From positions 544,001 to 608,000 of the forward strand of contig CAWHWQ010000005.1 of assembly GCA_963833095.1 (NCBI GenBank): a DNA stretch of 64,000 nt, given 5' to 3'. Position numbers: made by a program. Origin of the DNA: Vulcanimicrobiota bacterium. GTDB lineage: Bacteria > Vulcanimicrobiota > Vulcanimicrobiia > Vulcanimicrobiales > Vulcanimicrobiaceae. Positions 33,001 through 36,000 of this stretch are shown here, piece after piece (within the stretch, counting starts at the first letter, position 1; every line of letters begins with the position of its first letter).

Positions 33001-36000
33001 GACGTTCGGGCCTTCGAGCAAAAACTGGGCCATGTGCGAAAGATCGAACAGTCCGGCGCGATGACGGACGGCATCGTGCTCTTTGAGAATGCTCGAATAC
33101 TGCACGGGCATTTCGAAGCCGGCAAACGGAACGAGGCGCGCGCCATGCTTGCCGTGCTCATCGTAGAGCGCCGTGCGGCGCAACCCGGGCGATGCGCTCA
33201 TGATTGCTTCGGCGCCTCCTCGGGATAGGTGTTGAGAAAGTTGAGCGTCGTGTGCGCAACGAGCTTGCCGTTACTCTTCACCTCGACCTCGCCGTAGCAA
33301 ATTCGACGGCCGGCGCGCAGCACGCGTGCCTCGGCGATTAAGTCGTGCGGCGGTAACGCCGGGGCGAGGAAGTTACACTGGAGTGACACCGTGACCGTGT
33401 CTTGCTCGCGACCGTAGATCGATGAGAGCGCGACATAAAACACGGTATCGCACAGGCTCACGATCGCGCCCCCGTGCACGGCGCCGGTCCCGTTGGCAAT
33501 TTCCGGACGATACGGCATGCGCATCGTGGCCTTCCCATGCTCGACGCTCTCGAGCTTGAGATCCAGCAGCGCGACGAAATGCGACTTCTCTTTTTCCCAG
33601 CGGTGCGGAGCCGAGGTGAAATCAGGATGCATACGATCCTTAGAATACTGGGCCATCGGCCGCCAACGCACGACGAAGGTAAAGGGGTAGCGAGAACAGC
33701 CGCCGGTGCGTCTGTCCGTCGTAAAAGAAGTTCTCACCGCGCAGCTGCGCGCAATACGCATCGACCGCGGCGGGATCAAGTCCCGCCAAGTCGACGCTGT
33801 CACTGCAGGCCAGGAACGCCCAATCGGTATCGAAAGCGGGAACGTAGGTGAAGAACGAGGTGACGTGCTTGTAATGCCGCCGCAGTGTACGCGACATCTT
33901 GCAGTGCAGCGAGTAATTGTGAAACGCCGCCGTGCTAGCTTGCAGCACGTAGACGCCGCCGTCGGCCAAACGTGACTTGATCAGACGAAACACCTCTTCG
34001 TTGAAGAGGAGGTTGCTCGGCGAGTCTTCCAGCGGCTCGGTGAGATCCGAGATGATCACGCCGTATTTCTCGTCGTGTTCGCGCATGTAGGCAAGCGCAT
34101 CCCCGATGATGACGTTCGCGCGCGGTTCATCGAAGGCGCCGTCCCCCCATTCCGGCAGAAATTTCTTCGAAAGATCGACCACGAGGCCGTCGATGTCGAC
34201 CATCGTGCAACGCTTCACGCCGGGATGGCGCAACACGTCCCGCAACGTTGCGCCCTCTCCGCCACCGAGAATGAGGACCTCGCTACGATCTAAGGCACCG
34301 GCCATTGCCGGGTGCACCAGCGACTCGTGATAAATCTTCTCGTCGCCTTGCGAACTCTGCGTATCACCGTCAAGGATGAGCATTTTGCCGAAAACCGGAG
34401 TCGAAATCACCGCGACCTGTTGAAAATCAGAACGTCCCGAAAAAAAGACGTTCTCAATCGCGTGGTGGTGGGCTTCGGTCGGGGCGGACTCCTCGACGTA
34501 CCACTGCCAGTGTTCGGTTTTCGGCATAGCGGGCACCAGCCTTCGCCATAGGCAAAGGGCACCCCCCCGAGAAGCGATGGGCCTGGAAACTGAAAAGAGC
34601 CGCTGCATCCTGCAACGGCTCTTTGATGGTTCCCTCGAGGGTTTGAGTGTTACGCGGAGAGCGCGGTCGTTTCGTGATCGCGAGTAACCACGTGCGTGAA
34701 GCTCCCACCCGCTTGCGCGATTCCGCGCTTAACTTCCGTCGTCAACATGGTCTTGGCATTGAGTATTTTCGCTGCGTACTCGCAAGCGAGCCACGGATCG
34801 GTATGATCACCGCACGTGTAAAAATCCATTGCGGCATAGCCGGTCTCGGGCCACGTATGGATCGAGATGTGCGACTCCGCCAGAACAACCACACCGGAGA
34901 CGCCCTGCGGCTCAAACCGGTGAAACGCGACTTCCATAACCGTCGCGCGCGATGCCTTGGCCGCTCCGATCATCATCTCGCGGACCGCATCGACGTTGGT
35001 GAGTGCCGCGCCGTCACAGCCTGACAACTCACACACGATGTGCGTACCGAGTGCCTTCAATTTTTCCGCTCTCCTTGAGCCTCGGGGGAATCCCACCTCC
35101 GGACTTGTCGGCTGGCGCCTGCTGTGCAGCGTCACGTCCCCGACCTATCGACGAACTCTTGCCGGCGCTTTTCGGTGCACGGGCGATTCGTCGCGATGGC
35201 GCGAAAAGGGCGCGCCTACCCCCTACCGTGGACCTACCGCTTGGGGGATTAACCCAAGCTCAATACCCCAGGTCCGGCGAACATAATAACCCCCCAGACC
35301 CCCCCTGTAAACCCCTGGGGGATAAGAAGTTCTTAATGTTGTTCTTCGAGGCGCCGAAAAGGGGCGGTCCTCAGGATGTGCCGCTCCAAGCCGCCCCTAA
35401 TTGCCTGGGACAAGTCTACCATAGACGGTCAATAACCCGGAAACGTGGTGCTGTGGATGGCCCCTGGGGTGGCCATATCTCCCTTATTTTATTGGCTTTC
35501 TGAGCAGTCTTGAGGGGATAATCATTCACACCAAGTTCGTCCCCCTATCCATGTCCGTTGACTTTACACGCTTACCCCGCTTATAATCCCAGCAACACGG
35601 AATGAAGAGGCGGCTTTAGCCTCATTGAAGCCATGCACCCGAAACCCCGTGAAAGTTAGGCGGCGGCCCCAAGGGCCTGCTGCCGCAACGAGGTGGTGAA
35701 TTTGGTGAGCAATGGCATAGAGCAAGCCCGCGCCGATCTGCGCGAGGCCGAGTACGGCCTACAACTCCTAGACAGCGGCATCGCCGCCAAGGAGCGCGAC
35801 CTCCAGAACGAGCGCGAGAAGCGCGAAGTATACGCTCAAAATGTTGAGCTTCGTCGTCAACTGCTACGACAACTTGAATCGACCGCGGCTAAGATAACAA
35901 ACTAATATAGAGAAAGGGGGTGCAAAACCGATGGAACGATTCGTCGGTCCCGTGAGGGACTAGGGCTCAATCTTCCATGAACACGCAGTAAGCGCGGAGA

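Follow-up and report, generated by a model that had tools for sequence, protein, structure and literature searches.

A conserved, structured leader RNA upstream of speD in the Vulcanimicrobiaceae carries a masked Shine–Dalgarno mimic shared across the phylum

The present study identifies a conserved and previously undescribed leader RNA that precedes the S-adenosylmethionine decarboxylase gene speD in the Vulcanimicrobiaceae and probably controls the amount of the enzyme. The RNA was analyzed in a window of 64,000 nt from a Vulcanimicrobiota genome (positions given below are those of the window), where its conserved part occupies 35061–35235 on the minus strand, within a predicted speD 5′ leader of ~215 nt. 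Two elements can be distinguished. One is a small hairpin in which the invariant stretch GGAGGUGGGAU forms a masked mimic of the Shine–Dalgarno (SD) sequence; it is shared across the phylum and is not special to Vulcanimicrobiaceae. The other is a large fold lying upstream. The small hairpin is the older element and the large fold an order-specific addition, because most loci outside the family (f1) that carry the small hairpin have no large fold. We tentatively favor, at somewhat less than an even chance, a model in which an order-specific sensor domain and the phylum-wide masked mimic together control the translation of speD.

Table 1. Features at the speD locus (window coordinates; arms are given 5′ to 3′ on the minus strand)
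Feature	Position	Strand	Remarks
speE (spermidine synthase)	33640..34530	-	PF01564, 138.5 bits; PF17284, 50.7 bits
Terminator-like hairpin and T-run between speD and speE	34599..34616	-	Putative terminator, prediction
speD (S-adenosylmethionine decarboxylase proenzyme, small pyruvoyl-type, 136 aa)	34650..35060	-	PF02675, 139.3 bits
Ribosome-binding region	35058..35080	-	Hairpin GCUC-AAGGA-GAGC 35080-35068, A-rich spacer, TTG start
Masked SD mimic	35084..35100	-	Invariant GGAGGUGGGAU 35100-35090, then pyrimidine run 35089-35084, able to pair
Junction AUAG and hairpin PD carrying PE	35107..35148	-	AUAG 35148-35145; PD 35144-35135/35117-35107; PE 35129-35126/35122-35119
Hairpin PB carrying PC	35149..35193	-	PB 35193-35187/35155-35149; PC 35184-35177/35168-35161
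G-run and hairpin PA	35198..35223	-	G-run 35223-35219; arms 35216-35211/35203-35198; loop 35210-35204
P0, 5′-proximal hairpin GGACC...GGUCC	35230..35275	-	Predicted fold; outside the conserved core
Predicted promoter TTTACA-17-TATTAT	35283..35311	-	10/12 matches

The speD reading frame opens with a TTG codon (35060–35058). Although a preliminary description of the locus placed speD and speE in one operon, the terminator-like hairpin that lies between them, the sole site of its kind on the minus strand within 34400–35800, means that such an operon is not established. Promoter-like sites in the region number 2 against 0.6 ± 0.7 in shuffles, and the predicted promoter would put the transcript start near 35276; a TTTACA/TAATAT-type pair is found at the equivalent place in leaders of families f3 and f13. 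Contigs from four metatranscriptome runs (four studies) span the leader core together with the speD reading frame and weakly indicate that leader and speD lie on one RNA, this evidence being contigs alone, which give neither strand nor transcript ends. The intervals that these contigs leave uncovered (35243–35500 and 34587–34627) are uninformative, since relatives diverge there.

Among 121 genomes of the family, 111 carry the stretch in a DNA search with 35040–35290 of the minus strand (a tally that includes this genome and takes in 10 unpublished ones), as do 70 of 78 genera, with similarity running from ~35234 down to the speD start codon. The stretch adjoins the speD start in all 70 excised loci, or 68 of 68 when two unpublished genomes are left out, bearing out the earlier proposal of a conserved structured leader directly before the gene. 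Covariance model R1 matches 70 of 71 genomes of f1 and the single genome of its sister family (f2), and none of 78 genomes across 19 other families of the phylum, in keeping with the family-wide and narrow range first reported; its match in this genome (C5:579081–579226 on the contig, 35081–35226 in the window) is 146 nt long. The RNA is present in a single copy per genome, before speD each time, and speD was likewise not found in the lone complete family genome in which the RNA is missing (G025, 96% complete). A second, weak R1 match in genome G187 (28 bits) was dismissed as chance, being without the invariant stretch and falling within a frame of 678 codons. Coding on either strand was also rejected: the cores measure 118–182 nt, and their lengths are spread over all three classes modulo 3 (40, 29, and 28). 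In Rfam 15, the best of six matches in this stretch lies off the core and reaches 14.8 bits (E-value 0.28), the family's gathering score being 45; a search of 20 diverse leaders (f1, f2, f18, f19, and f21) yielded a single match at E ≤ 1, with E 0.54 and outside the leader. Members of the SAM clan gave no match at E ≤ 10 in this stretch and none at E ≤ 1 in the 20 leaders. Nothing in this stretch approaches the gathering score of a known family, in agreement with the earlier statement that no Rfam family matches.

The fold was assessed on two alignments, a trimmed one of 68 sequences (A2) and one of 97 sequences fitted to the model (A3), which together support five helices (PA, PB, PC, PD, and PE). 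RNAalifold, run on the 68 sequences, returned 35 pairs, and in 21 of these both sides change. For the 34-pair structure, 90.4% of cells in A2 are paired, vs. 21.2–46.2% when partners are slid by 1–3 columns; both-side changes affect 22 of the 34 pairs, vs. 12.3 ± 1.5 in shuffles, and none of 500 shuffles reaches any of five measures. The corresponding values in A3 are 90.9% paired and both-side changes in 28 of 34 pairs, vs. 15.9 ± 1.7. Thus, the covarying helices already reported are found again. All of the covarying changes fall within one order and so represent few independent events. The single-sequence fold energy is ordinary (z +0.40, with 132 of 200 shuffles folding as well), and the evidence for the fold is therefore comparative only. 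Invariant columns number 33 and lie mostly in linkers and loops, a pattern typical of ligand- or partner-binding RNAs.

The individual helices differ in how they vary. P0 changes in sequence and length and cannot be aligned between clades, and the similarity of other genera begins 3′ of it. PA is 99.7–99.8% paired, with exchanges from G-C to A-U and from G-C to C-G. Both-side changes occur in six of seven pairs in PB and in six of seven in PC; the hairpin that these form has a tip of variable length and a near-invariant internal-loop strand, AAGAG (35160–35156), and a genome without PC (G047) still yields a match of 118 nt and 85.7 bits. In the PD hairpin, covariation is seen in the outer PD pairs and in PE, where 31 sequences have C-G and 32 have G-C at pair 128/140. 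Farther in, the PD pairs form perfectly and covary in minority clades but are mismatched in the majority, including this stretch; PD is 75% paired overall. An extension of PB by AUCG/CGAU linkers was ruled out by the covariation of pair 39/106, and no closing P1 helix was found in the leader fold.

In addition to these helices, the G-run (35221–35219) and the PA loop (35210–35208) form an H-type pseudoknot of 3 bp. All three pairs are possible in 97 of 97 sequences, with 87 combining GGG with CCC, 7 combining AGG with CCU (three genera, compensated), and 3 combining GGG with CCU; AGG together with CCC occurs in none of the 97. A pseudoknot had been proposed previously as a weakly supported feature and, if it is the same one, it is better supported than was thought. 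A closing helix between the 5′ G-run and a 3′ C-run, which would produce a four-way junction, is disfavored, in that the G-to-A change goes with the PA loop; the C-run is CCCCC or CCCCU in the seven sequences that carry this change. Sequence variation does not discriminate an alternative in which the PA loop would pair with GGG in the invariant stretch; the G-run already engages this loop.

The stretch GGAGGUGGGAU is identical in 68 of 68 sequences and occurs once in this genome. Its invariance had been recognized before, when it was taken for a single strand peculiar to the family; it is instead the 5′ arm and loop of a hairpin found phylum-wide. Of 401 genomes of the phylum, 104 carry GGRGGTGGGATYTCC, each in a single copy, and a reversed control gave no matches; the pattern GGRGGUGGGAUYUCC lies 25–43 nt 5′ of speD in eight or more families, in most of which the large fold is absent. 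Among 29 loci outside f1, the small hairpin precedes speD at 25 (f2, f3, f13, f17, f18, f19, and f21); the other four pattern matches, none of them near speD, were discounted as chance. Across all prokaryotes, GGAGGTGGGATCTCC is found in at least 120 stretches; among 80 of these that were examined, only 3 stand in front of speD, each under the title Vulcanimicrobiota or Eremiobacteraeota. The first seven bases of GGAGGUGGGAU, GGAGGUG, are the exact complement of CACCUCC at the 16S 3′ ends of G108, G006, and G177, three relatives that stand in for this genome, in which the 16S tail was not found, its best look-alike being something other than rRNA. The pyrimidine run takes several forms (CCCCC, CCUC, CUCC, CCCANCC) with pairing ability kept, and local hairpins at the mimic are predicted in nearly all leaders, while the pairings of the G-rich strand are beyond covariation testing because that strand never varies. 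Moreover, the distance from the element to the start codon is kept at 25–43 nt, whereas that to the promoter varies from ~60 to ~185 nt, which ties the element to translation initiation and not to the promoter. On a by-eye reading, an upstream reading frame starting from the mimic was discarded: only AUU/AUC follows, and neither frames nor stops are conserved.

The SD itself, AAGGAG (35076–35071), is presented by a small hairpin of its own, whose flanking helix (GGUC...GACC or GCUCU...AGAGC in close relatives) is restricted to this clade. In a partition-function model, blocking the 5′ arm of the mimic lowered mean predicted SD accessibility from 0.64 to 0.59; the drop exceeded 0.05 in 28 of 91 leaders. 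The three modeled values, 0.64 against 0.59 and 0.69, lie close together with competing G-rich and C-rich strands present, and the SD is predicted to be open in most leaders whether no constraint is applied, the 5′ arm of the mimic is blocked, or the pyrimidine run is blocked. A plain anti-SD/SD switch is thus not supported by the energies, the effect on SD accessibility being small.

The leader has the general traits of a riboswitch, namely a conserved, aptamer-like covarying fold with conserved junctions placed in cis to a gene of one pathway; neither a binding pocket nor a switching helix was identified in it. The label “riboswitch-like” applied to it at the outset therefore holds for its cis-regulatory appearance, while the step to a riboswitch is one that we infer, and the energetic effect of SD sequestration is weak. 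The RNA comprises, in order, a variable 5′ hairpin, a compact pseudoknot and two long hairpins connected through near-invariant linkers, and the small mimic hairpin, with GGAGGUG in its 5′ arm as the SD mimic and an anti-SD-like pyrimidine run as its 3′ arm. This hairpin lies in the 30S docking zone, since its 3′ end is 24 nt before the start codon. In the model favored here, the masked mimic would be an old platform common to the phylum, and the ~130-nt pseudoknot/hairpin domain, present only in this order, would be the sensor. Its ligand would most likely be a metabolite of the polyamine branch, with spermidine the first candidate, followed by decarboxylated SAM, methylthioadenosine, or SAM. 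Ligand binding may alter the masking of the G-rich strand by the pyrimidine run and hence the ribosome’s encounter with the true SD, by any of three routes: the freed pyrimidine run could compete for the true SD, the unmasked mimic could hold the 30S subunit, or the folded domain could obstruct the ribosome. We infer that regulation occurs at the level of translation; by analogy, expression would be off in the presence of the end product. It is possible, if rather unlikely, that the leader represents a second class of polyamine riboswitch, unrelated in structure to the first, with a hitherto undescribed type of output device in which the mimic, beside the true ribosome-binding site, captures or releases the 30S subunit or its own anti-SD strand and onto which one order later grafted the pseudoknotted sensor; if so, the lone small hairpin of other families might respond to polyamines. 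Those families do with the small hairpin alone, so that sensing could instead reside in a trans-acting factor that the whole phylum shares.

Other explanations invoke a different partner for the RNA. A dedicated RNA-binding protein might recognize the invariant loop and linkers and repress or activate speD translation, with SpeD, SpeE, or a phylum-common regulator as candidates and the large domain contributing affinity or a scaffold. We regard this as fairly improbable, although families with widely differing G+C and leader sequences have the small hairpin alone in common, which fits a common trans-acting partner. The loop GGGAU contains a CsrA-like GGA; in this genome, a second GGA loop lies at the SD ~19 nt away, and CsrA is encoded. 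However, CsrA was not found in f13 (zero of six), f17 (zero of one), or f21 (zero of one), in five element-bearing f3 genomes (G154, G177, G191, G222, and G223; 95–98% complete), or in f1 genomes with the full RNA (G022, G090, and G047; 96–99% complete), and with so many element-bearing genomes lacking it, CsrA is excluded as the common partner. The second GGA is, moreover, not conserved outside f1 and is missing from many f3, f13, and f18 leaders. The locus has no linked candidate gene for such a protein, and fifteen invariant bases exceed what known small protein sites need.

The mimic may instead address the ribosome without any small ligand, as a standby or decoy site for the 30S subunit or as a stabilizer of the kind of STAB-SD sequences, which stabilize mRNAs; the upstream fold would then tune its exposure, for example in response to temperature, to the overall level of cations or polyamines, or to the speed of transcription. 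Several observations accord with this: the mimic is an SD-like, 7-nt perfect complement to the 16S tail within a 5′ UTR, is positioned in the 30S docking region, and has no AUG, GUG, or UUG at usable spacing on its 3′ side, phylum-wide invariance is what pairing with an invariant rRNA would lead one to expect, and the masking strand varies freely. Against it, the element serves speD only, once per genome, which would be unusual for a device serving expression or stability in general, and both the invariant GGGAU after the mimic and the elaborate, covarying, order-specific domain are left unexplained; we accord it a low probability, like that of a protein partner. Control of transcription by Rho-dependent or pausing-based attenuation is very improbable. 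The leader is indeed long, untranslated, and structured, but it has no intrinsic-terminator-like site (35061–35280, minus strand), the conserved element keeps its distance from the start codon and not from the promoter, and the contigs from the RNA libraries continue from the leader into the reading frame.

Knowledge of the host phylum, which has Vulcanimicrobium as a cultured member, comes almost entirely from metagenomes of soil and peat, and the leader may serve there as an annotation marker of 146 nt. The masked mimic, ~15 nt and phylum-wide, is a compact and easily tested element, which suggests a form of initiation control in which a decoy or standby site is gated by an upstream fold, and this is not a standard riboswitch platform. 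Polyamine riboswitches have long been sought. In the portion of the literature drawn on here, one class is validated, a rare SAM-I variant in Bacillota (PMC10853860); if the favored model is true, a second and unrelated fold before speD would offer an independent view of RNA sensing in the polyamine pathway.

Several known systems invite comparison. Like CsrA-controlled leaders, the speD leader of this genome has GGA in the loops of two short hairpins, one at the SD; unlike them, the element is found in many genomes in which CsrA was not. Translational riboswitches that use SD/anti-SD pairing include the SAM-III/SMK box, which the speD leader resembles in having G-rich SD-like and pyrimidine-rich anti-SD-like strands near the ribosome-binding site. 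In contrast to the SAM-III/SMK box, its conserved G-rich strand is a mimic 25–43 nt upstream and not the working SD, it has no Rfam match, and the energetic effect of sequestration is weak. Weinberg et al. 2017 (PMC5737381) describe the ldcC motif as an orphan candidate for a cis-regulatory RNA, located in the 5′ UTRs of decarboxylase genes, including that of SAM decarboxylase, and propose that it acts in polyamine homeostasis; the comparison with it is one of descriptions, and the speD leaders searched match no Rfam model (4227 families). The spermidine riboswitch (Salvail, Balaji, Roth, and Breaker 2023; PMC10853860) is a validated SAM-I variant with 13 examples in Bacillota that controls polyamine genes including speD and uses transcription termination. 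The speD leader differs in having no SAM-I match, no P1 found, and a different phylum as host, and it cannot use the transcription termination of that class because it contains no terminator-like site. The two are nevertheless alike in being structured 5′ leaders that stand in cis before polyamine-synthesis genes, in having a narrow taxonomic range, and in offering the same feedback logic on the polyamine pathway.

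The speD leader contains a genuine structured RNA that is limited to one order and had no counterpart in the databases searched, and its most conserved stretch is part of an older, phylum-wide masked mimic of the Shine–Dalgarno (SD) sequence. Because a promoter-like site (table below) predicts a transcript start near window position 35276, the leader would be ~215 nt long, and positions 35061–35235 are its conserved portion; DNA similarity to family genomes sets in near 35234. A DNA search with positions 35040–35290 matched 111 of 121 family genomes (own genome and ten unpublished ones included), which together represent 70 of 78 genera. 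Among the 79 family genomes at least 90% complete, 75 gave a match. As the preliminary description held, the conserved block always adjoins the first speD codon (70 of 70 loci cut out; 68 of 68 without two unpublished genomes). In four metatranscriptome runs, each from a different study, contigs extend across the leader core into the speD frame (such as 34946–35217, 34989–35246, and 34957–35231), strand and ends not being readable in such contigs and DNA carry-over being possible. As for the speD–speE operon proposed earlier, speE lies downstream on the same strand, but a terminator-like hairpin separates the two genes, which therefore may not form a single obligatory operon. The speD promoter (TTTACA, 17 nt, TAATAT or TATTAT) is recognizably alike in the window and in leaders of two distant families of the phylum, f3 and f13 (L104, L105, L106).

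Features of the speD locus and its leader, in window coordinates unless marked otherwise
Feature	Position	Strand	Remark
Promoter-like site TTTACA-17-TATTAT	35311-35283	minus	Promoter-type match
Variable-sequence 5′ hairpin	35275-35230	minus	First part of leader
G-run	35223-35219	minus	Pairs with PA loop
Hairpin PA	35216-35198	minus	One of the five counted helices is its stem
Long hairpin PB/PC	35193-35149	minus	Variable-length tip; near-invariant AAGAG internal-loop strand
Linker AUAG	between PB/PC and PD/PE	minus	Alignment
Hairpin PD/PE	35144-35107	minus	Followed by short linker
Invariant GGAGGUGGGAU	35100-35090	minus	3′ of short linker after PD/PE
Pyrimidine run	35089-35084	minus	Directly after GGAGGUGGGAU; then ribosome-binding region
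Small hairpin GCUC-AAGGA-GAGC	35068-35080	minus	SD sequence in loop; predicted fold
SD sequence AAGGAG of speD	35076-35071	minus	Sequence read
speD	35060-34650	minus	TTG start; PF02675, 139 bits
Terminator-like hairpin	34599-34616	minus	Strong, with T-run; in ~120-nt gap from speD stop (34650) to speE start (34530)
speE	34530-33640	minus	PF01564 + PF17284
4HBT-type thioesterase gene	33198-33620	minus	PF03061, 68 bits; directly 3′ of speE, same strand
CsrA gene	G000:C4:45810-45965 (own genome, outside window)		PF02599, 88 bits

The single-sequence folding energy of the leader is unremarkable (z +0.40) and uninformative, so the case rests on comparison. After removal of the two unpublished genomes, RNAalifold predicted 35 pairs from 68 sequences, and in 21 of these pairs both partners change. 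In the structure that we counted on the trimmed alignment (34 pairs in five helices), 90.4% of cells are paired, versus 21.2–46.2% when partners are slid by 1–3 columns, and 22 pairs carry both-side changes, versus 12.3±1.5 in shuffles; on none of five measures did any of 500 shuffles match the observed value. This independent rebuilding bears out the covarying helices reported earlier. A model-aligned set of 97 sequences, which includes four from f2, a sister family in the same order, gives 90.9% paired and both-side changes in 28 of 34 pairs (versus 15.9±1.7), figures biased towards the model to which the alignment was fitted. Core lengths in this set (118–182 nt) fall into all three modulo-3 classes (40/29/28), so neither strand is conserved as a reading frame; two long antisense frames on the plus strand (34957–35286 and 35003–35503) are ruled out as coding over the leader by its indel pattern.

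Parts of the fold differ in constancy. One genus (G047) lacks the upper part of PB/PC, and its 118-nt version scores 85.7 bits nonetheless. In minority clades the inner pairs of PD are all intact and covary, whereas in the majority, window included, they are mismatched; PD overall is 75% paired. The H-type pseudoknot between the G-run and the first three PA loop bases, perhaps the tentative 3-bp one proposed earlier, can form in 97 of 97 sequences (87 GGG:CCC, 7 AGG:CCU, 3 GGG:CCU, and none with AGG and CCC); since the seven compensated sequences belong to three genera, they represent approximately three events. No helix closing the entire domain was found. The SD-loop hairpin, whose stem becomes GGUC..GACC or GCUCU..AGAGC in close relatives, is restricted to the window's clade within its family, f1.

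Across a sample of the phylum, the covariance model R1, built from this fold (145 positions, 34 pairs), matched 70 of 71 f1 genomes, the single f2 genome, and none of 78 genomes from 19 other families, reproducing the earlier figures. In the sole f1 miss (G025, 96% complete) a protein search found no speD either, and the f2 sequence shows compensatory substitutions in both PA and PD. One genome (G077) has two differing leader and speD copies (L065 and L070) on short contigs (C36 and C112); at 87% completeness and 4% contamination, these may equally well come from mixed strains or from a duplication.

When R1 was run unfiltered on speD loci of other families, only the G-run and the invariant stretch aligned. 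Minimal leaders there consist of a promoter, a short hairpin or nothing, GG(A/G)GGUGGGAUCUCC, and, ~25–40 nt further, a strong SD sequence rich in G, with the start codon after it. In its strict form, GGRGGTGGGATYTCC, the pattern was found in 104 of 401 phylum genomes (seven unpublished ones included), at most once per genome, and its reversed control in none of the 401; the own genome has GGAGGTGGGAT once. Outside f1, 25 of 29 matches examined (24 of 28 without one unpublished genome) sit 25–43 nt upstream of speD, in f2, f3, f13, f17, f18, f19, and f21; the other four lie elsewhere and are attributed to chance. The element is kept even in f13 leaders that are otherwise nearly pure A+U. With one genome per prokaryotic species, GGAGGTGGGATCTCC gave at least 120 stretches; of 80 that were retrieved, three stand before speD, each from this phylum, which suggests that the element may be absent from speD leaders elsewhere. 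Thus the stretch described earlier as an invariant leader part is indeed invariant in f1, but it is not specific to that family. Around the speD start, the block GGGGUGGCUUGCC-AUG-AAAGC is near-identical across f13, f17, f18, and f21 (L108–L113, L139–L141) at very different G+C, and can fold with AUG in the loop.

GGAGGUG, the first seven bases of the element, is exactly complementary to CACCUCC in the 16S rRNA 3′ end (...GGAUCACCUCCUUU), as read from three relatives because the own assembly lacks that end. No suitably spaced start codon (AUG, GUG, or UUG) comes after it, which marks GGAGGUG as an SD mimic rather than a start site. The element keeps its spacing to the start codon but lies anywhere from ~60 to ~185 nt from the promoter, a pattern that ties it to translation initiation. 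The pyrimidine run, which follows the mimic and can mask it, reads AUCUCC in most families, where the two form a hairpin of six pairs closed by a GGG loop, and CCCANCC, CCCCC, CCUC, or CUCC within f1. The G-rich strand never varies, so covariation can prove none of its pairings; an invariant G-rich strand with a variable masking strand is the pattern expected if the former must fit an invariant partner. In the A+U-rich f13 leaders (L108–L112), the sole other C-rich patch, ~10–17 nt upstream, reads ACCU with GGAGGU and ACCC with GGGGGU, and would make a compensated pairing with mimic bases 3–6, in a single event.

Tentatively, we favor a model, plausible though short of probable, in which an order-specific domain senses a metabolite and acts on the masked SD mimic, which would set speD translation. 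Of the "cis-regulatory (riboswitch-like) leader" proposed earlier, the conserved structured leader before speD holds; any ligand, the direction of control, and the level at which it acts are inferred. A simple SD/anti-SD switch is weakly supported at best: were the mimic to hold the pyrimidine run off the true SD, blocking the mimic should close the SD, but when 91 leaders were modeled with a partition function, the average accessibility of the SD shifted little (0.64 free, 0.59 on blocking the mimic, 0.69 on blocking the pyrimidine run), and only 28 leaders dropped by >0.05.

A ribosome-directed device without a small ligand would account for the invariance of the G-rich strand and its exact fit to the 16S tail; we nonetheless consider it unlikely. 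Binding of a protein partner to the leader is likewise doubtful. The window shows what look like paired CsrA sites, GGGAU in one loop and the AAGGA of the SD in that of another hairpin, but CsrA has a patchy distribution across the phylum (f1 67/71, f13 0/6, f6 0/19) and was not found in the six f13 genomes, five element-bearing f3 genomes (95–98% complete), f17, f21, or three f1 genomes carrying the full RNA, and thus is not the element's common partner. Transcriptional attenuation is very improbable, as a search of the speD leader found no terminator-like site.

In agreement with the preliminary description, Rfam 15 gave no match near any gathering score for the window stretch (E≤10), and for 20 diverse leaders (E≤1) nothing except one match outside a leader. 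Literature searches on Eremiobacterota and riboswitches found no paper, and those on speD RNA motifs, polyamines, and cis-regulatory elements no description of this RNA. According to PMC10853860, the validated spermidine riboswitch is a SAM-I variant with 13 examples in Bacillota, an off switch that acts via transcription termination and is located before speE, speB, speD, and ldcC; the ldcC motif is, according to PMC5737381, an orphan RNA before decarboxylase genes, SAM decarboxylase included. Both share gene context with the speD leader, and presumably regulatory logic; the riboswitch differs from it in fold and platform, and the ldcC motif probably does too.
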